From Minisyncoccota bacterium (GTDB lineage Bacteria > Patescibacteriota > Minisyncoccia > 2-02-FULL-40-12 > GWA2-44-9): a DNA stretch of 64,000 bases. Under the pieces are notes generated by a model. It was not told the DNA's origin. It did not search any database and saw only the letters and a program-made list of their open reading frames with translations. Position numbers and translations under genes: made by a program. Below, in pieces: positions 3,774-33,694 of this stretch (positions are counted from its first letter, which is position 1; each line of letters begins with the position of its first letter). The DNA lies in assembly GCA_030583765.1 (NCBI GenBank), contig CP129474.1, forward strand, positions 265,709 to 329,708. The letters run 5' to 3'.

Positions 3774-5021
3774 TCAGGTCTCGGGCGGAAAGTTATCATA
3801 GAGGTTCGCGAGAGCGGCCCCAAATAGCCCTGGCCGCTCCTTTTCAAGCTCTTCCGAGAAATCCCCCCATCCAATCATTTGGTCGTTTGTCTGACTTTCA
3901 ATATACATATTTTCGATATCTTTTTGAGTCAGAACGTCCATAAGAATTCTCATGGCAGCAAAAAATATATCGCTTTGACGATAACTATCAACATTGTAAT
4001 TTGCGATGATCTCATCCTTAATTAGTCTTCGGAGATACATATCGGAGTCAGCTAAGAGCCCTGAAATTATTGTGTCTTCGAGGAGTTCTTTCCTGGAAAG
4101 AAATCTCTTATTACTATTCAATGCAGTTAATAAATCCCTTGCCAAGTGTGTTTTTTGGTCCACCTGAAATTCAAGAGAACTATAAAGAAAGTCGGAAATT
4201 GTCTTGGCACTATCTACAACAAGCTTCGCCTGATGTTTAGCTGGTTTGAGTGAGCGACGATGGCGATCCCCTAGACGATTACTGAGAGAGTCAAGGTTCT
4301 GGATAATACCATTAAACCCTCGGACTAGGCCCTTCATTCCCTCATGCGCATGCTCATCTTCTGAAAGATTTAAGAGGCCTTTCACTTTCTTATAATCCGA
4401 TAGTAGATTCCCAGTCTCCTCCAGTTGCTGACCGGTGCACTGCAGGTACACCTCACCAAGTATGCCTTCGACCAGAGATCGAGCGTTTGTGATTGCGCCG
4501 TCGTAATCACCGGTTTTTAATTTATCATCACACTTTATTATCTGCTCACGAACAAAACTGGAAGAAATTCTTTTCTCGGTGGCAATCTGAATAATTTCTG
4601 TCAGTAGTCGCGCAGCGTAAACGGGTCGCCCAGAAATCATGCGCGATTCAAAAATTTCATAACCATCTCCCTCGAGATGCTGGTTAAAAATCTTTAGGAG
4701 CTTAACGACCTCCTCGGACTTTGTTCGAACAACTGGGTGCAACATCTCGCAAATAAACATCAAAAACTTATCATCAGTGCATGCGAGAAGGTTAATGCGC
4801 TTATCTGTGAATACCCAATTATCTGGCCAATCAGAGTTATGCAACCTGTGCTGAATGATTTCGGCTTCCATGATTGGGAAACGAACATCATATGAAGGCA
4901 TCTCACTCAACCTATACAAACGAGACAGGAAGTCGACCTCACTAAGTCTTCCGTGCCAAGCAAAAGTCGACCCTTGAATTTCATCGATGATATCCCTTCG
5001 AGTTACTTCTGATATAGCCAT
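3774..5021 (-). CDS. abortive-infection (Abi_C/AbiJ-like) protein with HEPN Rx4H motif
   Basis: 415-aa ORF in a markedly low-GC segment. The C-terminal region contains NRLGDRHRRS (R-x4-H, HEPN signature of the Abi_C family), preceded by a long helical N-domain. Confidence 0.5.
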   Translation of the reverse strand: MAISEVTRRDIIDEIQGSTFAWHGRLSEVDFLSRLYRLSEMPSYDVRFPIMEAEIIQHRLHNSDWPDNWVFTDKRINLLACTDDKFLMFICEMLHPVVRTKSEEVVKLLKIFNQHLEGDGYEIFESRMISGRPVYAARLLTEIIQIATEKRISSSFVREQIIKCDDKLKTGDYDGAITNARSLVEGILGEVYLQCTGQQLEETGNLLSDYKKVKGLLNLSEDEHAHEGMKGLVRGFNGIIQNLDSLSNRLGDRHRRSLKPAKHQAKLVVDSAKTISDFLYSSLEFQVDQKTHLARDLLTALNSNKRFLSRKELLEDTIISGLLADSDMYLRRLIKDEIIANYNVDSYRQSDIFFAAMRILMDVLTQKDIENMYIESQTNDQMIGWGDFSEELEKERPGLFGAALANLYDNFPPET

Positions 5022-5530: not shown

Positions 5531-6061
5531 ATGGATGACATGGATACGCTCATTACGTTGAGTGCAGCGCTTGCCCTTGCGACGGTTATTGAATTTTACA
5601 CGCTCGCATTGCGGCTTTCCTTTCATCTCAAATCACGGCACATTCAACAAGATGTGATCCGCATGCCACGCATCCACCACTCCTACCTTGGCATTGCCCT
5701 ACTCATCGTTCACTACGCGTTCTATCCCTCGCTGTGACTTGCGGTCATTGGATGGGCGCTCATTCTCTCTGATGCCTTTCACCACGCCATAGCGCTTCCG
5801 CTCATGAAAAAGCGTGGCTATGACATTGGCATGCGTCGCCATGCACATGCGCACTCCTACTTTAAGCACGGCCTTGCAGTAGTGCTCATTGCAACAGGCT
5901 TGGTAGCATTTCTCACGCCATTCACGCCCGGTTCATGGCTTGTGTTCCCAGGTGTCGCGCTCATTGTTGGCAAAAAAAATGCACGCGCACTTGCACGACG
6001 CATACTAGGAAAGAAGCTCGTGGAGAATCCCCACGTAGCACGCATGCTTCAGAGGTTATAA
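5531..6061 (+). pseudogene. membrane protein reading frame interrupted by an in-frame TGA (or two adjacent small ORFs of 68 and 85 aa)
   Basis: ORFs 5531-5737 and 5804-6061 are in the same frame, separated by a single TGA at 5738-5740. Hydrophobic, TM-like sequence continues straight across the stop (…YPSL*LAVIGWALILSDAF…). Confidence 0.3.
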
Positions 6062-19540: not shown

Positions 19541-19560
19541 AAACGCCCCGAAGGGCGTTT
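19541..19560 (-). terminator. rho-independent terminator of rnpB
   Basis: Hairpin AAACGCCC-CGAA-GGGCGTTT, followed on the minus strand by a U-rich run. Confidence 0.5.
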
Positions 19561-19561
19561 T

Positions 19562-19952
19562 GGGAGGCATACCGATAAGCCGGGTTCTGTCTGGCCTTGC
19601 GGTGAGACTGTCATGTATCTAGGCGTGTCGTTGCCGCCACGCTCAAGCGATCGAACTTTTCGAACCTCGTCTCACGCATTGCTACGTGAGCGGGAACGCT
19701 GATCTTGCACCCGGGTAAGGATTTAGCCGTTTCACCCCAAGCCTTTAATCCCATCAGCTTGGACTTGGCTATGATATGACGAATCACATCACATGGGTTT
19801 GCCACCGATGCCCTTTCGAACATCGAACGTCTCTGCTCGCACCTCTCACATTACTGTGTGCGGGGGTTACCCGCTACCCTGCTCCTCTGCATACGCAAAG
19901 GGAGTGCCCGGACTTTCCTCTCCTGTTAGGGAGCGACAGTCCAGTATACCTC
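19562..19952 (-). ncRNA. rnpB: RNase P RNA (bacterial type)
   Basis: rc contains the universally conserved GGAGAGGAAAGTCCGGGCACTCCC (P4 5' strand) and ACAGAACCCGGCTTATCGG (P4 3' strand). A P1 helix GAGGUAUAC/GUAUGCCUC joins the ends. ~390 nt. Confidence 0.8.
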
Positions 19953-24418: not shown

Positions 24419-26451
24419 AATTAGTCATCGTAGAAAGCCCAACAAAAGCAAAGACAATCTCCCGTTATATCACGGGAGATGTTGTCGTTCTCTCTTCTTT
24501 TGGTCATGTGCGCGACCTCCCCAAGAGTGATCTCGGTATTGATGTTGAACATGATTTCACGCCGAAGTATGTGGTCCCCACAAAAGCAAAAAAGAACCTC
24601 TCACTCTTAAAGAAGGAGGCGGCAAAAGCAGACACTGTTGTGCTGGCGACCGATGAAGACCGCGAAGGAGAATCAATCGCATGGCACCTCCTTGAGGCGC
24701 TCGGACTTTCGGGTACGAAGAAAAAGAAGACAGAAGAAGGAAAAGATATTCAGCGCATCGTTTTTCATGAAATTACAAAAGAGGCCATCCTCCACGCACT
24801 TGAACATCCGCGCACCATTGACCAAAGTCTCGTGGATGCACAACAGGCGCGACGTATCCTGGATCGCCTTGTGGGATATAAACTCTCACCACTTCTTTGG
24901 AAGCGCTACTATCGCGGCCTTTCGGCAGGGCGCGTACAGTCAGTCGCACTCCGCATTATTGTGGATCGCGAGCGAGAGATCCAGGCATTCAAGCCACAAG
25001 AGTATTGGACCGTTGACGCAACGCTCCTCCCAGAGGCCGGAACATCCTTTACCGCGCATCTCACTGGCGTCGATGGAAAGCCATTGGGTGACATGGATAT
25101 CGCATCACAGACACACGCCGATATTATCACTAAAGATCTCGAGGGGGCGAAGTGGCAGGTACAGGACGTACAGCGCACCGAGGTTACGCGCTCACCGATG
25201 GCGCCATTCACCACGAGCACCATGCAACAAACAGCGTCGCGACGCCTCCGCTTTTCATCAAAGCAGACCATGATGCTCGCCCAGCGCCTCTACGAAGCTG
25301 GATACATTACGTACATGCGTACGGACTCCGTGAATCTCTCCGAAGAGTCCCTCGCAAAAGCAGCGACGTATATTACTGAAAACCTTGGGGCGCAGTACTA
25401 CCAACGACGCACTTTTAAGACAAAGTCTAAAGGCGCACAGGAGGCCCACGAAGCCGTTCGCCCAACGGATCCATTCCGTACCCCAGAAGAAATGGCAAAA
25501 GAACTCGATCCTCGTCAGGCAAAACTGTATGACCTTATTTGGCGGCGCTTCATCGCAAGCCAGATGCCACAAGCACGGATCGATTCTACCGGCATCGACG
25601 TACGCGCATCGCGCGAAGGCAGTGAGCACGTCTACGACTTCCGTGCTACGGGAAGCATTATGACATTTGATGGCTTCACAAAGATTTATCCATCCTCCTT
25701 TGAGGAAACGCCACTTCCGATTGTAAAAGCAAATGATGCTCTCACACTCGAAGCGCTCCTCCCCGAACAACACTTTACAAAACCACCTGCACGATTCAAT
25801 GAAGCGTCGCTCATTAAAGTTTTGGAGAAAGAAGGCATCGGACGACCTTCAACGTATGCGTCTATTATTTCAACGATTGTAGATCGTGGATATGTCGAAA
25901 AGGATAAGTCGCGCTCATTTGTGCCCATGGATATTGGCATGCTTGTCACCGACTTCTTGGTTGAGCACTTCCCCGCTATCGTGGACACCCATTTCACATC
26001 ACACATGGAGGCAAAACTGGATGACATCGCCGAAGGCAAAGAAGAGTGGGTGCCCGTAGTAAAAGAATTCTATGATCCGTTCGCGCAAACACTCGCTGCG
26101 AAAATGGATATCGCGAAAGATGCAAAAGCTGCTGACGTCGAAACCACCGATAAGGTTTGCGACAAATGCGGAAGCCCCATGGTAGTAAAGCGTGGTCGCT
26201 TTGGGAAATTCATCGCGTGCTCTAACTTCCCCACCTGTAAGAACGTACTCAAAGAGAAAAAGGATACGCCGCCGCCAGAGCCAACGGGAGAAAAATGTGA
26301 CAAGTGTGGTGAGGGAGATCTCGTGATGCGCACGGGACGCTTTGGGAAGTTTATCGGCTGCTCTCGCTATCCAAAGTGTAAGAACATCAGAAAGCTTCCG
26401 AAGGAAGAGCGTGACGCACCGGTCGCGAAGCTTGACGAGCAAGAGAAATAG
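24415..26451 (+). CDS. topA: DNA topoisomerase I
   Basis: TOPRIM start MKLVIVESPTKAKTI, the catalytic domain, and two C-terminal Zn ribbons (CDKCGSPM…, CDKCGEGDL…). Confidence 0.9.
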   Translation: MKLVIVESPTKAKTISRYITGDVVVLSSFGHVRDLPKSDLGIDVEHDFTPKYVVPTKAKKNLSLLKKEAAKADTVVLATDEDREGESIAWHLLEALGLSGTKKKKTEEGKDIQRIVFHEITKEAILHALEHPRTIDQSLVDAQQARRILDRLVGYKLSPLLWKRYYRGLSAGRVQSVALRIIVDREREIQAFKPQEYWTVDATLLPEAGTSFTAHLTGVDGKPLGDMDIASQTHADIITKDLEGAKWQVQDVQRTEVTRSPMAPFTTSTMQQTASRRLRFSSKQTMMLAQRLYEAGYITYMRTDSVNLSEESLAKAATYITENLGAQYYQRRTFKTKSKGAQEAHEAVRPTDPFRTPEEMAKELDPRQAKLYDLIWRRFIASQMPQARIDSTGIDVRASREGSEHVYDFRATGSIMTFDGFTKIYPSSFEETPLPIVKANDALTLEALLPEQHFTKPPARFNEASLIKVLEKEGIGRPSTYASIISTIVDRGYVEKDKSRSFVPMDIGMLVTDFLVEHFPAIVDTHFTSHMEAKLDDIAEGKEEWVPVVKEFYDPFAQTLAAKMDIAKDAKAADVETTDKVCDKCGSPMVVKRGRFGKFIACSNFPTCKNVLKEKKDTPPPEPTGEKCDKCGEGDLVMRTGRFGKFIGCSRYPKCKNIRKLPKEERDAPVAKLDEQEK

Positions 26452-26472
26452 CGTATTCTCTGCGCCAAGGAG

Positions 26473-27093
26473 GTGGGTTGGGTGTACATCTATCCGCCGC
26501 AAAAGACGCATGAGATTCGCGAGATTAGAGGGGCGCTCCTAGTGGATCGTCCTCTGTACCATGACGAACGCGGCCAGTTCTCTGAACTCTTGCCTGCGGG
26601 AGGAATACGGCCCCCGCGGGGTCGCGCAATCACGTTCGCAGGCGGACAGACGAACAGCTCCGTGTCGTTCATGGGCGCCGTGCGAGGCATGCACTGGCAG
26701 CATGGGCAGGGAAAGCTCATCACCGTACTTTCTGGTAGGATTCTAGACATCATCCTTGATGTCCGTCATGGGTCGCCTACTTTTGGCGCCACTCATGAAG
26801 TCCTACTCCAGGACACGACGCACGAAGATGTGGTCGCGCAATCACTCTACGTCCCGCCAGGAGTCGCTCACGGATTCATGGCGCTTTGTCCTACAACCCT
26901 GGTATATCACACGACCAGCGCATGGCAGCCCCACAATGAAGGCGGCGTTCGCTTCGACGATCCAGACCTCAGCCTTCCATGGCCCAAAGAGTGTGCGCCA
27001 ATCGTCTCGAAAAAGGACAGTAAGCTCCCCTTGTGGAGCTACTGGAAGCATAACCTAAACAAACTCCCGCAGTGGCCCCGCACCGAAGGGTGA
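26473..27093 (+). CDS. rmlC: dTDP-4-dehydrorhamnose 3,5-epimerase (cupin)
   Basis: …VRGMHWQHG…LDVRHGSPTFG…PPGVAHGF… matches RmlC core motifs. Confidence 0.7.
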   Translation: MGWVYIYPPQKTHEIREIRGALLVDRPLYHDERGQFSELLPAGGIRPPRGRAITFAGGQTNSSVSFMGAVRGMHWQHGQGKLITVLSGRILDIILDVRHGSPTFGATHEVLLQDTTHEDVVAQSLYVPPGVAHGFMALCPTTLVYHTTSAWQPHNEGGVRFDDPDLSLPWPKECAPIVSKKDSKLPLWSYWKHNLNKLPQWPRTEG

Positions 27094-27170
27094 CGGCCCC
27101 TGCACGGGCGCCACCTCTCCCTATGAGGTGGCGCTTTTTCTTGCAAAGAGCTCGCCCGGGTGTACCATAC

Positions 27171-29102
27171 ATGATTACTATGACCCTCCCGGAATCTGGA
27201 GCATCATTTTTAGAAACCCTACATCGTGCGCGGCGCTTTGGTGACGAAGAGCGCGAACGCATCGTGCACGCTTTTGCTATCGCACAACGCGCGCATGCGA
27301 TGCAAACGCGAAAAAGCGGAGAGCCCTATCTCTCGCACCCAATCGCCATCGCACAACACCTTGCAACACTTGGTATGGATGCTGCAACTATTGCCGCAGC
27401 ACTCCTCCACGATGTGCTTGAAGATACCGCAACAGACCAAGCAGAGATTGCGCGCGCATGCGGGAATGACGTGCTCTTCCTTGTACAAGGCGTCACAAAG
27501 CTTTCACACCTTCCCTTTGCGCCTCGCACCACAGCGGAAGCACACGATGCATATGTAGCCTCTTTTAAAAACCTCGTCTTTGCCATGGCGGAAGATCTGC
27601 GCGTCATCATCATTAAACTCGCCGACCGCCGGCACAACCTCATGACCCTCGATGCGCTTCCTGAAGAAGACCGCCAGCGTATCGCGCGAGAGACGATAGA
27701 GATTTATGCGCCCATCGCTTCTCGGCTTGGCATGGGAACAATGCGTGGCGAGCTTGAGGATCTTGCCTTCCCATATGCGTACCCCGAAGCCCATGCTCAC
27801 CTTTCTTCACTGGTACATGAGACCTATGATGACCGTCTCGCCTATACCAAACGCATCACCCCCATTGTTGCACGAACCCTTGATCTCGCCGGCGTGCGCG
27901 TGCGCGATATTCATGCACGCGCAAAACATACATGGAGTTTGTACCAAAAAATGCAACGCGACGGCCTCACAACGCTCGACACCATTTTCGATCTCGTGGC
28001 GCTGCGCGTCATCGTAGATTCAATTCCCGCATGCTATGAAGCCCTAGGCGCCATCCACGCCCGCTATAAACCTCTTCCAGGCCGCATTAAAGACTATATC
28101 GCCCTCCCGAAGCCAAACGGGTATCGCTCGCTCCACACGACAGTGTTTTGTGAAGAAGGCCGCGTCACCGAAATACAAATACGAACTCCGGATATGCACG
28201 CGCATGCAGAGCATGGTATTGCGGCGCACTGGGCGTATAGCGAGTCAGGAAAGGTACGAGGATTTACCGCCGACACCAATCACGCCGCGTGGGTTGCCTC
28301 TCTTCGCGACACCCTCAAAGATATTAAAACAAGCTCTGGCATGGCGCGCGCAACTAGCGACTTTTTGAAAAACCGCATGTATGTATTCACGCCACAAGGC
28401 GACGTAAAAGACCTCCCCGAAGGCTCGACTCCGGTCGACTTTGCATACGCGGTACACACAAATCTTGGGCACGCGATCGTAGGGGCAAAAATAAATGGGG
28501 CAATCGCACCACTGAGTGCCTCTTTGCATAATGGAGACGTCGTTGAGGTTCTCAAAAGTAAAACGCAAAAGCCGTCCTTTGACTGGTTGGCATTTGTACG
28601 CACATCGCACGCACGGCAAAGCATTCAGTCATGGTTCAAGAATAATGACCCACGAACCATGATAGCCAACGGGAAGGCCCTTCTCGCAAAAGAACTCCGA
28701 CGCATTGGCATTGCGTGGGATAGTATCCCGCGCGCAACTATTGTCCAGATGATTCATACCTATTCCGCGCGCACCACTGATGGACTCCTTTCTCGTATCA
28801 GCGTGGGGGATGTAAGCGCATCTGAAGTAGTAAAAAAGTTTTTCCCTGAAGCGCGGACGCCTCGCAAGCAACAGAAAAGAAAGAAATCAACCAAGGCACC
28901 CCAGCGCACTCAAGCGCTTATCGTGGCGCACGACCCAACGCTCCCGTGGCGTATTGGCAAGTGCTGCGCCCCAGAGCAACCCGAGCGCATTATCGGATAC
29001 ATCACCCGCGGCAAGGGCATTACTGTACACGCACGCACGTGCACAAACGCACAAACCGCCCCCAAGGAGCGGCTTGTGTCTGCAAAGTGGAATGCAGATT
29101 AG
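27171..29102 (+). CDS. bifunctional (p)ppGpp synthetase/hydrolase (RelA/SpoT family)
   Basis: HD domain (HDVLEDT), synthetase domain (…YRSLHTTV…), TGS and ACT regions. Start chosen at MITMTLPE after the rmlC stop. Confidence 0.85.
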   Translation: MITMTLPESGASFLETLHRARRFGDEERERIVHAFAIAQRAHAMQTRKSGEPYLSHPIAIAQHLATLGMDAATIAAALLHDVLEDTATDQAEIARACGNDVLFLVQGVTKLSHLPFAPRTTAEAHDAYVASFKNLVFAMAEDLRVIIIKLADRRHNLMTLDALPEEDRQRIARETIEIYAPIASRLGMGTMRGELEDLAFPYAYPEAHAHLSSLVHETYDDRLAYTKRITPIVARTLDLAGVRVRDIHARAKHTWSLYQKMQRDGLTTLDTIFDLVALRVIVDSIPACYEALGAIHARYKPLPGRIKDYIALPKPNGYRSLHTTVFCEEGRVTEIQIRTPDMHAHAEHGIAAHWAYSESGKVRGFTADTNHAAWVASLRDTLKDIKTSSGMARATSDFLKNRMYVFTPQGDVKDLPEGSTPVDFAYAVHTNLGHAIVGAKINGAIAPLSASLHNGDVVEVLKSKTQKPSFDWLAFVRTSHARQSIQSWFKNNDPRTMIANGKALLAKELRRIGIAWDSIPRATIVQMIHTYSARTTDGLLSRISVGDVSASEVVKKFFPEARTPRKQQKRKKSTKAPQRTQALIVAHDPTLPWRIGKCCAPEQPERIIGYITRGKGITVHARTCTNAQTAPKERLVSAKWNAD

Positions 29103-29986
29103 TCAATAATATTTCGAGCGATGAGGTTGAGCTCTTCGTGATCTGCGAAGCGAATAACAATTTGTCCGCCACGAGCGCCCGTCTTGATAAGTACCGGGGC
29201 TTTTAAGCGCTCACACAGCGTACTCTGAAGCTCTTCAAACCGACGATCTGCGTTCGTACCCGCACGGCCGCCCTTATCACGTGACGAAGCAAGTTCGATG
29301 TCAGACTTTGAAAACCCGTCCTCAACGATGCGCCGGAACATTTCTTGCTGCTTCGTAGGGTCAGAGAACGCCAAGAGTGCGCGCCCATGCGTAGCGCCAA
29401 TTTTCCCACTACGAATCGCCTGTTTAATGTTATCCGGCAACTTCATGAGACGCATGGTGTTGGCCACCGTTTCACGAGACTTCCCCACTTTTTGAGCAAT
29501 TTCTTGCTGGGTAAGGCCAAACTCGCTTGCGAGACGAGCATAAGCTTCCGCTTCTTCCATGCCGTTCAGATCATCGCGCTGTACGTTTTCAATGAGCGCT
29601 ACCTGAAGGCGCGTAGACTTCTCATTGCCAAGATCGTCTTTGATGATAACAGGAACGGTTGGTAGACCCGCCATCTGCGCTGCGCGTAAACGACGTTCAC
29701 CGGCAATAAGCTCATAGAACACGTCCATGCCCCGCGGACCATGATCCTCTTTCTTTGAAACCAAAAGCGGCTGGAGCACCCCATAGCGCCGGATAGAATT
29801 CGAAAGTTCCTTCAACGCATCTGCGTCAAAATCCTGGCGCGGCTGATCTGGGTTCGGACGAATCTTGCCGACTTCAATATAAAAGACACTCTCTTTCACT
29901 GCAGTCGCCTCTGCGCTCCGCACGCTTGAGTCTGCAGGAATGAGCGATCCGAGCCCCTTACCAAGTCCAAATAATTTTTTCACCAT
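29099..29986 (-). CDS. parB: chromosome partitioning protein ParB
   Basis: ParB box GERRLRAAQMAGLPTVPV and an HTH (LTQQEIAQKVGKSRETVANTMRL). Confidence 0.85.
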   Translation of the reverse strand: MVKKLFGLGKGLGSLIPADSSVRSAEATAVKESVFYIEVGKIRPNPDQPRQDFDADALKELSNSIRRYGVLQPLLVSKKEDHGPRGMDVFYELIAGERRLRAAQMAGLPTVPVIIKDDLGNEKSTRLQVALIENVQRDDLNGMEEAEAYARLASEFGLTQQEIAQKVGKSRETVANTMRLMKLPDNIKQAIRSGKIGATHGRALLAFSDPTKQQEMFRRIVEDGFSKSDIELASSRDKGGRAGTNADRRFEELQSTLCERLKAPVLIKTGARGGQIVIRFADHEELNLIARNIID

Positions 29987-29988
29987 AA

Positions 29989-30753
29989 TTACGCCAGTTT
30001 AATAATTTCTTCTGCAAGCTGTCGGTATGCGTACGCTGCTTTTGAATACGGATCGAACTGAAGAATTGTTTTTCCAAAACTCGGCGCCTCTGCAAGCGAT
30101 ACGGTGCGCGGAATGACTGAAGAAAACACTCGGCCCGGGAAATGTTTCATCACTTCGTTCACGACTTGGTTCGCCAACTGGTTACGCTTGTCATACATTG
30201 TAAGCACCACACCGAGTACTTGCAAATCATGATTCAATCCATTGCGCACCAACTCGACAGTGCGCAATAGCTGCCCCAATCCTTCAAGCGCAAAATATTC
30301 ACACTGCACTGGGATCATCACCTTCTCCGCAGCCGCAAGCGCGTTAATAGTGAGAAGGCCAAGTGATGGCGGGCAATCAATGAGCACGTAGTCATAGTTG
30401 TGCCGCACTGCGTCAATCGCACGCTTGAGACGACTCTCGCGAGCATCCATAGACACGAGTTCAACGGTAGCGCCCGCAAGATTCTGCGCCGCGGGTAGCA
30501 CATCAAACCCAAAAAGCTGCGTGCGCTTTAGGATGCGTTGCGGATTTTGATCACTGACAAGCACGTGGTACACATTCGCGCCTTCATTGTCTTCGTGGCC
30601 CAATCCCAAGCCTAATGTTGCGTTTGCTTGAGAGTCTAAATCTACCAAAAGCACATACTTTCCGAGCGCCGCCAAATATGCGGCAGTGTTGATAGCCGTC
30701 GTTGTTTTTCCTACGCCCCCCTTCTGGTTGCACACTGCGATAACGCGGGCCAT
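29989..30753 (-). CDS. parA: chromosome partitioning ATPase ParA (Soj)
   Basis: Deviant Walker A KGGVGKTTT. Start at MARVIAVCNQ. Confidence 0.85.
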   Translation of the reverse strand: MARVIAVCNQKGGVGKTTTAINTAAYLAALGKYVLLVDLDSQANATLGLGLGHEDNEGANVYHVLVSDQNPQRILKRTQLFGFDVLPAAQNLAGATVELVSMDARESRLKRAIDAVRHNYDYVLIDCPPSLGLLTINALAAAEKVMIPVQCEYFALEGLGQLLRTVELVRNGLNHDLQVLGVVLTMYDKRNQLANQVVNEVMKHFPGRVFSSVIPRTVSLAEAPSFGKTILQFDPYSKAAYAYRQLAEEIIKLA

Positions 30754-30805
30754 AGCTGTACCTGCATCGTAGCACGCAGGCATACGGGGGGCAATGAAGA
30801 AGCGT

Positions 30806-30835
30806 TGAAAAACCGGCTTTTCCGTGGTACGCTAT
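30806..30835 (+). promoter_or_regulatory. candidate promoter for tRNA-Leu (TTGAAA-N17-TACGCT)
   Basis: Hexamers read directly upstream of the repeat/tRNA leader. Confidence 0.3.
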
Positions 30836-30852
30836 GCCCGCAGTAGTTAGCG

Positions 30853-31076
30853 CAGTGAAGCGAAAAAATGCCGGGGTGGGTTGATATCGAGCATCATGCA
30901 CAGATATCAACGGGTTTCAACAGAAACCCGGGCCACAACCCCGCTCCGCTTTTACAGCGGAACACAGTGAAGCGAAAAAATGCCGGGGTGGGTTGATATC
31001 GAGCATCATGCACAGATATCAACGGGTTTCAACAGAAACCCGGGCCACAACCCCGCTCCGCTTTTACAGCGGAACA
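30853..31076 (+). repeat. perfect tandem repeat, 2 x 112 bp, each unit = 27-nt tRNA-Leu leader + first 10 nt of tRNA, followed by an 85-nt hairpin-rich segment
   Basis: Copies 30853-30964 and 30965-31076 are 112/112 identical. A third start of the unit (cagtgaagcgaaaaaatgccggggtgg) continues into the genuine tRNA-Leu. Confidence 0.9.
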
Positions 31077-31093
31077 CAGTGAAGCGAAAAAAT

Positions 31094-31179
31094 GCCGGGG
31101 TGGTGGAATGGCAGACACGATGGACTCAAAATCCATTGAGGGCAACCTCGTGAGGGTTCAAGTCCCTCCCTCGGCACCA
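31094..31179 (+). tRNA. tRNA-Leu (anticodon CAA), long variable arm, CCA encoded
   Basis: GCCGGGGTGGTGGAATGGCAGACACGATGGACTCAAAATCCATTGAGGGCAACCTCGTGAGGGTTCAAGTCCCTCCCTCGGCACCA. Anticodon stem ATGGA/TCCAT, loop CTCAAAA. Confidence 0.9.
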
Positions 31180-31185
31180 GATCAG

Positions 31186-31665
31186 ATGACCCCCCAAGAA
31201 GCCACGTTCCATAAGCTCGTAGACCCAACAAAAGTGCAGGTGTTTGTATTCACGTGCCCTGCGAATATCCCAACGAACATCGGTGCGCACCCTTGGTTCG
31301 TCGTTAATCGACACGGCACGCTCTCGCGATGGGAGGTGCTTTTTCAGAAAAAATCACGATCCGCACAGCATTGGGGCCACATTTTTAAAGATGCCTTCCC
31401 TCCATTCTCTGGCATCAACATTTTTCCCTTTTTCTACGCTCCACGCTGGAATGCTACGCTTCTCGAAGTAGTTGAGGGCGAGACCGCAGAACTACTCGCT
31501 CAACGTATAGAAAACTCACCAACAGAATATCCATTGCGGGATACTTATTTCATCCTCGGCCCCAATAGCAACACGTACGGACAATGGGTTTTAGATACGC
31601 TCCCCATCCCTACCATCAAACTTCCCTGGAACTCATTTGGAAAAAACTACAGGCCCCGCACCTAG
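31186..31665 (+). CDS. hypothetical protein
   Basis: 159 aa from ATG 31186. The ORF-track start at 31108 lies inside the tRNA and was rejected. Confidence 0.4.
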   Translation: MTPQEATFHKLVDPTKVQVFVFTCPANIPTNIGAHPWFVVNRHGTLSRWEVLFQKKSRSAQHWGHIFKDAFPPFSGINIFPFFYAPRWNATLLEVVEGETAELLAQRIENSPTEYPLRDTYFILGPNSNTYGQWVLDTLPIPTIKLPWNSFGKNYRPRT

Positions 31666-32483
31666 AGCTCGCAGAGATTTTCAAGCATTGCGGCAACCAT
31701 AATAGGCCCCATGCCGCTGGGCACAGGAGTGAGAAGGTCGGTAAGCGAAGCAACCGATGTTGCGTCCACATCCCCCACTACCTTTCCTTTCTGGAGTGCG
31801 TAGCCAAAATCAATCACTGTCGCACCTTCTTTGATCCATTTTTTCGTAATCAGTTTTGGCTTACCTACTCCTGAAACAATGAGGTCTGCACGTGATGCGA
31901 TTGTGGCGGGATCTTTTGTGTACTCATCAATAACCGCAACGACTGCACCTTGCGCCTGAAGCCAGCGCGCGACGGGCTCGCCAACGAGCTGGCCCCCGCC
32001 CACGACAGCACACTGCATGCCGGGCAACACAACACCGCGCAACTCGCACACTTCACGCAACGCTCGTACCGTTGGAGGCAAGAGCACGAGACCAGCGGGA
32101 TCGGCATGGAACATCGCGCGGCGCTGGGAAGTGAGCACATCAACATCCTTACGAGGATCAATGAGATCCATACATACACTTGAGTCCATACCAAGAGGCA
32201 ATGGAAGCTCTAAAAAGATGCCGGTTACTTCATCATCTGCATTGAGAAACGCAATGGTCTCGCGCAAGCTCGCATCAGAAACATCTTCGAGAACGTATGA
32301 TGAAAACAATATGCCGCACCGTTCAGCGGCCTTCTTTTTGATAGCAATAAACTTTTCAACCGCGGGATTTTTTCCCACAGACACTGCCGCGAGCATGGGC
32401 GCGACGCCAAGCGCATCAACGCGCGCGCGAATACGCTCATGCATGTGCTCCGCGATGATAGTGCCATCAAGAATGGTTGCCAT
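31662..32483 (-). CDS. folD: bifunctional methylenetetrahydrofolate dehydrogenase/cyclohydrolase
   Basis: MATILDGTIIAEH… plus the NAD(P)-binding GxGxxVG region (AVVGGGQLVGEP). Start at the internal Met. Confidence 0.85.
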   Translation of the reverse strand: MATILDGTIIAEHMHERIRARVDALGVAPMLAAVSVGKNPAVEKFIAIKKKAAERCGILFSSYVLEDVSDASLRETIAFLNADDEVTGIFLELPLPLGMDSSVCMDLIDPRKDVDVLTSQRRAMFHADPAGLVLLPPTVRALREVCELRGVVLPGMQCAVVGGGQLVGEPVARWLQAQGAVVAVIDEYTKDPATIASRADLIVSGVGKPKLITKKWIKEGATVIDFGYALQKGKVVGDVDATSVASLTDLLTPVPSGMGPIMVAAMLENLCEL

Positions 32484-33135
32484 GGGCTTCTGTTGCATGA
32501 GTAATGAGCGAGAATGTACGGAGTAGGTCTTCTGGTTTTGCTGCACCAACGCGCGTAATGCGCGGCTGCGCCCCCGTGAGATCTACAATGGTAGACGGGG
32601 CCGATGCAGGCAGCGTTCCCACGTCAATCACAATATCAGGTTTGAGACGAGAAAACGATGCCAAGATGCTCTCAACATCACGAAGCGGCTCCTGCCCTGA
32701 AACATTCGCCAATGTGAGCGTGATTGGGTACCCGAATGACCGAAGCACGGCGTCAACGAGAGGAGCAGCGGGGGCCCGAAGCGCAACCGCCTGCGTGTGC
32801 GCCGTAACGATCTGTGGCACGATATCGCGCGCTTCAAGCACTACACAAACGGGACCAGGCCACACAGCCTTAAGGAAGGCCCCTTGCCTGGTGTTCACAT
32901 GCGCAAGCTCTGTCGCCCACCGATCATCACGCACGCCAACGGGTACTGGCTTATGCTCTGGCCTCCCTTTAATGCGAAACACGTGGCGCACATCTTTTTC
33001 ATTGAGTGCATTAGCGCACAACGCATAAAGCGTATCAGTGGGAAGCATAGCAACGCCACCACGAGAGAGCACCCACGTCACACGTTGGACAATGTCTTCG
33101 GAGATAGTGTCGGGGGTACAGCGAATAACTTCCAT
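32467..33135 (-). CDS. tsaC: L-threonylcarbamoyladenylate synthase (TsaC/YrdC/Sua5 family)
   Basis: YrdC fold motifs (LPTDTLYALCANALNEKDVRHVFRIKGRPEHKP). Start at MEVIRCT to avoid overlapping rpsP. Confidence 0.7.
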   Translation of the reverse strand: MEVIRCTPDTISEDIVQRVTWVLSRGGVAMLPTDTLYALCANALNEKDVRHVFRIKGRPEHKPVPVGVRDDRWATELAHVNTRQGAFLKAVWPGPVCVVLEARDIVPQIVTAHTQAVALRAPAAPLVDAVLRSFGYPITLTLANVSGQEPLRDVESILASFSRLKPDIVIDVGTLPASAPSTIVDLTGAQPRITRVGAAKPEDLLRTFSLITHATEAHGNHS

Positions 33136-33184
33136 GGGATAAAACACAACGAGGGCCCCGTGGCCCTCGTTCTCTGCTCGGGCA

Positions 33185-33469
33185 TTACGCCGTCGCCGCT
33201 TTCTTCTTTGGCTTCCAACTCTGCACTTTCTCGCGGTCAAGAATCTTGTGATTTGCGAGAAGATTATTAGCCGTTGGGCTCAAGAGTGCGCCTTGGCTCA
33301 GCCAGAACGTAATGCGCTCAGTTTGCGCCGCAAGCCTCTTTGCGTGCGGATCATAGGTACCCAAAAGCTCCTGGTATTCACCCTGGGGCTTTTTGGTGTG
33401 CTCAGTGAGCACAACGCGAAAATAGGCTTGTTTCTTCTTGCCAACGCGTTGGAGACGGATCATTAACAT
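33185..33469 (-). CDS. rpsP: 30S ribosomal protein S16
   Basis: MLMIRLQRVGKKKQAYFRVVLTEH… is a canonical S16 N-terminus. Confidence 0.85.
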   Translation of the reverse strand: MLMIRLQRVGKKKQAYFRVVLTEHTKKPQGEYQELLGTYDPHAKRLAAQTERITFWLSQGALLSPTANNLLANHKILDREKVQSWKPKKKAATA

Positions 33470-33694
33470 GGTGCGGAATATACTAGCACAGACTCAAAAA
33501 AAGACAAGTAGCGCCATTCGGTAATGGCCTCAGCCTTTTGGGCATGAAAAGCATAGGGGTCCCGAGACCATTCGGAGCCCGAGCGGGCAGGGTGTCTCCG
33601 TGAGGAGACGAGCGAGGGCGAGTGAGACCGCGCAGTCCCGCTGGGACTGCGACGGGAGTCGGAGGGACCTCTGTGCTGCATCATGCCCCATGCC

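Follow-up and report, generated by a model that had tools for sequence, protein, structure and literature searches.

Islands and prophages that tyrosine integrases place in tRNA genes normally occupy the 3′ half of the gene, carry an integrase together with cargo, are kilobases long and are bounded by repeats of at least 15 bp. MITEs and IS-derived miniature elements have terminal inverted repeats and multiple dispersed copies, and CRISPR arrays are composed of short repeats of 20–50 bp with unique spacers between them. Integration upstream of a tRNA gene or at its D-loop is a rare exception (bioRxiv 10.1101/2020.11.02.365908). The tRNA-linked repeats (TLRs) of Escherichia coli (Egan and Landy 1978; Rudd 1999, as summarised in PMC8144298) comprise 22 units, which are spread over ten loci in groups of one to five, and each unit ends in 18–19 bp that are identical to the upstream tRNA or rRNA gene's 3′ end (PMC8144298). 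Most of them are without known function, and RrA, RrB and RrF are processed sRNAs (PMC8144298). Small RNAs derived from the spacers of tRNA operons, such as 3′ETS-leuZ, have also been described (cited in PMC8144298).

The tandem repeat examined here lies in the small genome (615,149 bp) of a groundwater-type member of the CPR/Patescibacteria (Paceibacterota), within a 64-kb stretch of DNA that was analysed as a whole and is called the window below. It occupies a divergent intergenic region, in which parA (29989..30753, minus strand) and after it parB (29099..29986, minus strand) are read leftward, and tRNA-Leu and a DUF3750 gene (PF12570; 31186..31665, plus strand) are read rightward. The ATG of the DUF3750 gene lies 6 nt past the tRNA CCA, and folD, a Sua5-like gene, rpsP, rnc and nusB follow in this order; the NCBI proteins of the locus are WKZ27416-19. 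The tRNA gene is an intact tRNA-Leu(CAA) with an encoded CCA (31094..31179, plus strand), called by ARAGORN and matched by the Rfam tRNA model with 57.9 bits. It is the one tRNA-Leu(CAA) gene seen in the 64-kb window, which also holds the RNase P RNA gene (19560..19952). A putative sigma-70-type promoter of tRNA-Leu, read from the sequence, is located at 30805..30833 on the plus strand (TTGAAA at 30805-30810, a 17-nt spacer, and TACGCT at 30828-30833). The window's own TACGCT scores under the threshold of the promoter scan; the homologous promoter of a one-unit allele described below, TTGAAA-17-TAGGAT with an upstream TG, was called by that scan. Alignment showed the promoter stretch to be nearly invariant, even among relatives at ~79% identity. 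The repeat array is situated downstream of the putative promoter and upstream of tRNA-Leu at 31094, and no terminator-like site was found within 30600-31300. Because this conserved promoter stands upstream and a terminator-like site is absent between, the array most likely belongs to the transcribed tRNA leader.

Tandem Repeats Finder reports positions 30853-31103 as one array with a period of 112, 2.2 copies (2.24 copies of a perfect 112-bp repeat at the finer figure), 100% matches and 0 indels, in agreement with a first-pass annotation of this DNA, which had described a perfect 2 x 112-bp tandem repeat. The 112-nt unit consists of 17 nt of leader, nt 1-10 of tRNA-Leu(CAA), which form a decoy core (GCCGGGGTGG), and an 85-nt hairpin-rich segment. 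Unit 1 (30853..30964, plus strand) is divided into the leader at 30853-30869, the decoy core at 30870-30879 and the segment at 30880-30964. Unit 2 (30965..31076, plus strand) is the same as unit 1, with its leader at 30965-30981, decoy core at 30982-30991 and segment at 30992-31076. The segment thus occurs twice in the window, with 0 mismatches between the copies. The partial third unit (31077..31103, plus strand) comprises the functional 17-nt leader (31077-31093) and nt 1-10 of the real tRNA, and so bears out the first-pass observation that a third leader copy runs into the real gene. Within the 64-kb window GCCGGGGTGG is present at 30870, 30982 and 31094 only. Immediately to the left of the array, 'tagcg' (30848..30852, plus strand) is the rest of the native leader and contains the first position at which the window departs from the repeat-free allele L001. 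The segment gave 0 chance matches across 100 shuffles, and its G+C content is genome-like (0.52 vs 0.535), as of native DNA. A coding role of the unit was considered and rejected: the 42-codon open reading frame at 30868-30996 needs an ATG from the 17-nt leader, this ATG is missing from the left copy in the one-unit allele, and the 112-nt period shifts the frame. Exact-protein look-ups with the repeat-internal open reading frames and with the DUF3750 gene gave no match.

Like the E. coli TLRs, the array is made up of short non-coding units that lie within a tRNA transcription unit and adjoin the gene (from the promoter at 30805-30833 to the tRNA at 31094), these units repeat nucleotides from the end of the stable-RNA gene beside them, and their generation and amplification presumably proceed by recombination at the shared end. 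In contrast to the TLRs, which are found downstream and share the 3′ end, the array is found upstream and repeats the 5′ end, over 10 nt of tRNA sequence or over 27 nt when the leader is counted in. It is also known from one locus in one species, in which its presence varies by strain, compared with ten loci in E. coli, and sequence similarity between the two is absent. Because the units share tRNA nt 1-10 and 17 nt of leader, and the defining 3′-end feature is absent, the array falls outside the TLR family, and by analogy it may be regarded as a mirror image of the TLRs on the 5′ side. Nor is it a CRISPR array, as had been recognized at first pass, the units being 112 bp long and arranged head to tail, with unique spacers absent.

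Other alleles of the locus were retrieved as Logan contigs (k=31 assemblies) by exact-protein look-ups of ParA and FolD, and parA and the DUF3750 gene served as left and right anchors. It turns out that the copy number is polymorphic within one species, with 0, 1 or at least 2 units, so that the comparison between strains proposed in the first-pass annotation does reveal variation. One unit is present in L037 and L044 (two runs; 98.1-98.7% identity to the window). The insert is absent from L001 (97.8-98.9% identity) and from L033, L034 and L036, which represent related species (~79.5% identity). The GTDB representative JBBTYA01 (H51-bin004_1; L041) is presumed to have 0 units from a match to the L033-type promoter stretch, its leader being unread. 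Up to 30847, and from 31094 onward, L001 shows 100% identity to the window; its leader reads 'ggcacccaac'. The one-unit allele shows the order promoter, leader 'agaaaagagc', GCCGGGGTGG, 85-nt segment, 'cagtgaagcgaaaaaat' and intact tRNA, and its segment differs from that of the window by a single A-to-G change in the loop of hairpin 1. The sole flanking direct repeat in this allele is the 10-nt tRNA 5′ end GCCGGGGTGG, and the inserted block therefore measures 85 + 17 = 102 nt, with the 17-nt 'cagtgaagcgaaaaaat' inside the block. Nucleotides 1-83 of tRNA-Leu are the same in all six aligned alleles, relatives at ~79% identity included; the encoded 3′ tail is the sole variable part of the tRNA, and the full CCA is not encoded in some of them.

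These alleles bear on the two histories that had been offered for the array at first pass. The insertion of two 85-nt elements, each with a 27-bp target duplication, is contradicted, because the left copy in L037 and L044 has a different leader (agaaaagagc), only 10 nt are repeated and the block is 102 nt long. The alternative of a very recent tandem duplication that created two decoy tRNA 5′ ends fits the conspecific one-unit and zero-unit alleles and the identity of the units. Over 112 nt the window and L037 differ once, in keeping with the divergence of the flanks (1.3-1.9%), and the insert is therefore at least as old as the split between the window and L037. With 0 differences between its units, the tandem duplication is younger, or else is homogenised by conversion.

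The presence of more than one unit does not depend on the deposited assembly. All six ParA-side Logan contigs (L002-L005, L038 and L039) stop at window position 30882, and all four FolD-side contigs (L006, L007, L009 and L010) begin at 31074; identity to the window is 99.2-99.9% for the contigs that break at 30882/31074. When 0, 1, 2, 3 and 5 units were simulated with a de Bruijn graph, the sequence stayed unbroken for 0 or 1 unit and broke at exactly 30882 and 31074 for two or more. Because the contig ends are the breaks simulated only for at least two units, the unit-unit junction is present in at least seven runs (SRR26372204, SRR26372205, SRR26372210, SRR26372211, SRR24881069, DRR779145 and DRR859381), and the window allele contains at least two units. 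An assembly artefact, which the first-pass annotation had named as the case that would undo its reading, might be suspected from the 100% identity of the units and from the length of the array (251 bp), which could outrun short reads. However, the same contig ends in independent assemblies of seven runs require the unit-unit junction, and contigs with zero-unit or one-unit alleles pass through the locus unbroken, which leaves the artefact scarcely credible. As a practical warning, k=31 assemblies carrying the allele with at least two units all break at this locus. What results is a clean and independently reproduced copy-number variation in the leader of what is possibly the sole tRNA-Leu(CAA) gene of a 615-kb CPR genome.

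Three hairpins were recognized in each segment on the plus strand. Hairpin 1 (30880..30911; second copy 30992-31023) has a 9-bp stem, GTTGATATC/GATATCAAC, and a 14-nt loop. Hairpin 2 (30911..30930; second copy 31023-31042) has an 8-bp stem, CGGGTTTC/GAAACCCG, and the 4-nt loop AACA, and hairpin 3 (30945..30961; second copy 31057-31073) has the sequence TCCGCTTTTACAGCGGA and is not terminator-like, the U tail being absent. The first-pass annotation had reported two hairpins; its 9-bp stem stands, its second stem is 8 bp rather than 6 bp long, and the third hairpin had been overlooked. Between hairpins 2 and 3 lies an anti-core, CCACAACCCCG (30933..30943, plus strand; second copy 31045-31055), which is an inverted copy of tRNA nt 3-13 at 10 of 11 positions. 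The unit folds with -43.2 kcal/mol (z = -4.5), and the decoy core plus the 85-nt segment with -42.9 kcal/mol (z = -5.5); in the predicted fold of the unit a three-way junction is closed by pairing between CCACAACCCCG and the decoy core. Shuffled sequences fold far less well than the unit, and the allele with at least two units is established in several runs; both facts sit uneasily with the explanation that we favour below, and selection for an RNA function is conceivable.

A significant complementarity of the anti-core was claimed at one stage and has been lowered to borderline. The 10/11 inverted match is reached by 19 of 1000 shuffles against tRNA nt 1-16 and by 56 of 1000 against the whole tRNA, and the duplex energies of the segment are ordinary (matched by 614 of 2000 shuffles for the 10-nt core and by 288 of 1000 for tRNA nt 1-16). 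Nevertheless, the match to tRNA nt 3-13 hints at a specificity beyond that of random DNA, and this too speaks against the favoured explanation. The idea that the decoy 5′ end shields the folding of the tRNA from the anti-core was likewise rejected, because the equilibrium probabilities show the opposite: the predicted pair probability of the acceptor stem, which takes account of thermodynamics with kinetics aside, falls from 0.94 when the insert is absent to 0.63 when the segment is present and the decoy missing, and to 0.01 with the decoys. This modelling points to rivalry between the decoys and the real acceptor stem and not to any help from them, as would be expected of a tolerated burden more than of a designed element. 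Since the decoys outcompete the acceptor stem at equilibrium in the model, correct folding of the tRNA would have to rest on co-transcriptional folding.

The first-pass annotation had also raised a multi-copy miniature mobile element, to be checked by BLAST of the 85-nt segment, and that check found no copy beyond the locus in the window and in the collections searched. Elsewhere in the 64-kb window, the part of the 615-kb genome that this search covered, the 102-nt insert was detected neither at up to 3 mismatches nor by short-word BLAST, and a sensitive BLAST of the segment against the window and all fetched loci gave no match above 13 nt. Decoy 5′ ends are absent from the four further tRNA genes of the 64-kb window. 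A 22-mer of the segment had 0 matches in 185,579 GTDB species representatives (one genome per species), three segment patterns had 0 matches in IMG/VR, and blastn of the segment found none in 50,697 phage records and 72,556 plasmid records. A gapped hairpin-1 pattern gave 22 matches in JGI contigs, all of them chance matches to the arms only. The inverted-repeat scan found only the internal hairpins and the pair of core and anti-core, and thus no terminal inverted repeats, and the 12-nt tRNA 3′ end is not repeated nearby. We see no sign of mobility or of a separate function of the unit.

We consider it probable that the array is an orphan insertion in a tRNA leader that was amplified by unequal recombination or slippage, is co-transcribed with the tRNA and is discarded by RNase P. 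The 5′ leader of tRNA-Leu(CAA) carries a lineage-specific, non-coding insertion of 102 nt (the 85-nt segment with its own 17-nt leader), at whose border tRNA nt 1-10 stand a second time; together they make up the 112-bp unit. In the window strain this unit has undergone a tandem duplication, for which unequal homologous recombination or replication slippage between the flanking direct repeats is the most likely cause, and the array now has the order leader-[decoy 5′ end + segment] x 2-leader-tRNA. The repeat with its anatomy, the three allelic states, the support from independent assemblies and the absence from the other collections searched are observations; we infer that transcription of the array yields a longer 5′ leader on the pre-tRNA, that the array is lost through RNase P cleavage at the true tRNA 5′ end, that the duplication came about in the manner just given and that the array is close to neutral. 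The most fitting description of the array is a structural polymorphism that is neutral or carries a slight cost. If it is a structural polymorphism only, its value is modest, and it mirrors, on the 5′ side, the long-unexplained tRNA-linked repeats of E. coli.

Against this, the unit might encode a functional structured RNA whose dosage is set by the copy number, a reading that we regard as rather unlikely. It could be an sRNA released from the leader, each unit recreating the RNase P context AAAAAAU/GCCGGGG (cut at the slash) as a 5′ analogue of 3′ETS-leuZ or of RrA/B/F, or it could act in cis as an anti-acceptor switch: CCACAACCCCG would have two alternative partners, the decoy and the real 5′ end of the tRNA, and would so tune the maturation of tRNA-Leu(CAA). 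A Y-shaped fold of high stability (-43 kcal/mol, z = -4.5 to -5.5) that 0 of 200 shuffles reach, the 10/11 inverted copy of tRNA nt 3-13 (19/1000 shuffles), the orientation of the unit, which is that of the tRNA, its position downstream of the tRNA promoter, and the retention of the segment with one loop change across strains 1.3-1.9% apart are all consistent with such an RNA, as is the fact that processed sRNAs occur among the E. coli tRNA-linked repeats (PMC8144298). Like 3′ETS-leuZ, the segment is structured and non-coding and would form part of a pre-tRNA outside the mature tRNA, from which processing enzymes could release it; unlike 3′ETS-leuZ, which is a 3′ trailer, it lies in the 5′ leader, and it is conserved in one species only. 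However, a conspecific strain and all related species are without the segment, which is therefore dispensable, and the units matched no Rfam family, the tRNA model included, even at E <= 10. ARAGORN made no tRNA call on the decoy units and found the real tRNA-Leu only. The duplex energies of the segment are ordinary, and in the predicted fold the helix begins 1-2 nt inside the decoy and an NCCA-like tail is absent after it, which would make the unit a poor mimic of an RNase P substrate. Another account places the function at the level of DNA and takes the palindromes as sites for parAB, either ParB sites that resemble parS or a centromere (hairpin 2, GGTTTCAACAGAAACC) or additional outward promoters (a minus-strand TTGAAA-16-CATGAT in each unit). 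The array does lie 127 nt upstream of the parA start with a promoter-like site pointing at parA in each unit, hairpin 2 shows by eye the outer arms (GTTTCA/GAAAC) and spacing of the 16-bp parS consensus TGTTNCACGTGAAACA, and no canonical parS was found in the 64-kb window within 3 mismatches of this palindrome. Hairpin 2 nevertheless has 5 mismatches to parS, the central CG among them, and the promoter agrees with the consensus at only 9 of 12 positions. GGTTTCN4GAAACC-like sites number 5 in the window, of which 2 are the repeat copies, and 7 of 100 shuffles reach 5, so that these sites are not enriched. L001, whose ParA protein is identical, is without the segment, as are the related species, and hairpin 2 was accordingly rejected as parS; we hold any such role at the DNA level to be very improbable.

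A different origin of the insertion is conceivable, as the scar or mini-derivative of an integrating element that targeted the 5′ end of tRNA-Leu (acceptor/D-arm) and brought in a leader together with tRNA nt 1-10; the tandem units would then stem from tandem integration or from later amplification. As with tRNA-integrating islands, the insert of the one-unit alleles L037 and L044 lies between direct repeats of tRNA sequence (GCCGGGGTGG around 102 nt), the tRNA is reconstituted by the incoming sequence with a new leader, in keeping with the logic of attL and attR, and the insert is present in some strains and absent from others. Hot spots occur on both sides of this tRNA, which also has variable islands on its 3′ side (low-GC in L001 and L033), the ~10 nt directly 5′ of the tRNA differ in every lineage although the promoter is conserved, and islands upstream of a tRNA gene at the D-loop have been reported, if rarely (bioRxiv 10.1101/2020.11.02.365908). 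In contrast to such islands, the insert is 102 nt long and holds no gene, no integrase or recombinase is found among the called genes of the locus, and the composition is native, with a genome-like G+C content. Its repeat is only 10 nt long, compared with 15-221 bp for tRNA-associated islands (bioRxiv 10.1101/2020.11.02.365908), and is located at the extreme 5′ end of the tRNA rather than at a crossover in the 3′ half. The lack of terminal inverted repeats, and of a larger element or second copy in IMG/VR, the phage and plasmid records and the GTDB representatives, also argues against integration, and the left junction of the window, with its 27-nt repeat, does not suit a simple attL. An integration scar is accordingly a doubtful reading. 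There is likewise only a small chance that the unit represents an undescribed module of 5′-side tRNA-linked repeats, or the trace left by a miniature element with tRNA 5′ ends as its target. As a module it may release a Y-shaped sRNA or gate the maturation of tRNA-Leu(CAA), scaled by the copy number. If the units were processed RNAs or a maturation switch, they would constitute a new coupling of tRNA supply or sRNA dosage to a repeat that varies by recombination.

As regards the history of the orphan insertion that we prefer, the leftmost copy in the window already carries the 17-nt leader, and the repeat is therefore 27 nt long. Simple unequal crossing-over from an L037-type allele, which has a 10-nt repeat, would not yield this 27-nt repeat. 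In rooted three-taxon counts, the strains are equidistant over the left flank (41, 43 and 39 differences; star-like), and over the right flank L001 and L037 are sisters (17 differences vs 45-50), which conflicts with the distribution of the insert, shared by the window and L037. The 27-nt repeat of the window and this conflict between flank phylogeny and insert both count against the preferred explanation. The attempt to polarize gain and loss of the insert from the flanking phylogeny was abandoned, since the signals of the left and right flanks conflict. The locus is a recombination mosaic, the history of which involves recombination between lineages.

The 3′ side of the tRNA varies as well. 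A derivation of the segment from the 3′-flank islands of L001 or L033 was considered and dropped, similarity being absent. In L001 the 3′ side is occupied by a low-GC island of 1537 bp (GC 0.41) with ProRS, and in L033 by one of 657 bp (GC 0.44); in the window and L037 it is down to 6 nt. The two flanks of this tRNA-Leu gene thus stand out as recombination hot spots in an uncultivated lineage.

The stretch of approximately 10 nt that directly precedes tRNA-Leu bears no relation between any of the lineages in the alignment of locus alleles A1 (window 30848-30869, the conspecific contig L001, which lacks the insert, the more distant relatives L033 and L036, and L037, which carries the one-unit allele). 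The five 5'-adjacent sequences are ggcacccaac, agctaccagc, gagcggtatat, agaaaagagc and tagcg plus 17 nt. In the same alignment, the tRNA body and the promoter next upstream show essentially no variation, including in strains about 99% identical. From this pattern of sequence, the 10 nt look like a segment that has been replaced repeatedly, not point-mutated.

The regions on either side of the repeat were compared over window positions 25989-30806 (left) and 31186-33510 (right) with L001, L037 and L033. The left flank is star-like, and the left and right flank phylogenies are incongruent. In the right flank, L001 groups with L037 as its sister, with 17 differences as against 45-50, but the insert is common to the window and L037, contrary to that pairing. 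This incongruence indicates that strains of this CPR species have exchanged DNA by homologous recombination.

Besides the leader, the 3' flank of tRNA-Leu is also variable among the window, the one-unit allele, L001 and L033. The tRNA CCA and the DUF3750 start codon are separated by just gatcag in the window (31180-31185) and in the one-unit allele. A motif, ccaaaatagNtacactcNtttNac, precedes DUF3750 in L001 and L033 and is absent from the window and the one-unit allele, so that in these two DUF3750 may rely on read-through from the promoter of the tRNA. L001 has an island 3' of tRNA-Leu (L001 4274-5810; 1537 bp, GC 0.41) containing a ProRS gene of the archaeal/eukaryal type (PF09180), and L033 (3155-3811) and the relative L034 each have one of 657 bp (GC 0.44) with a 129-aa ORF. 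The L001 island opens, around 17 nt past the tRNA (about 5785-5795), with GGGACTTGAAC, the reverse complement of the tRNA-Leu T-arm 11-mer, which may be the remnant of a tRNA fragment in the opposite orientation.

The tRNA 3' end in the one-unit allele is GGCACA (L037 about 3826-3830; L044 528-533), one C fewer than the CCA encoded in the window and L001; CCA is not encoded at all in the L033 tRNA-Leu. A bacterial class A RNase P RNA lies at window 19560-19952 on the minus strand (119.2 bits; gathering score 100).

The parAB operon is present (window 29099-30753) despite the absence from the whole 64-kb window of canonical parS (TGTTNCACGTGAAACA, up to three mismatches), for which shuffles gave an expectation of 1.8. 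Each 85-nt segment of the repeat contains one minus-strand promoter-like site (TTGAAA-16-CATGAT, 9/12; window 31032-31005 and 30920-30893) pointing toward parA, and this site also occurs in the one-unit allele. In L040 (positions 1-1991), a Hain_H41 contig from a relative of about 79% identity, ParA is called at the same locus as a 228-aa product that is overlapped by a 444-aa ORF upstream, which may reflect a rearrangement or a gene-calling oddity.
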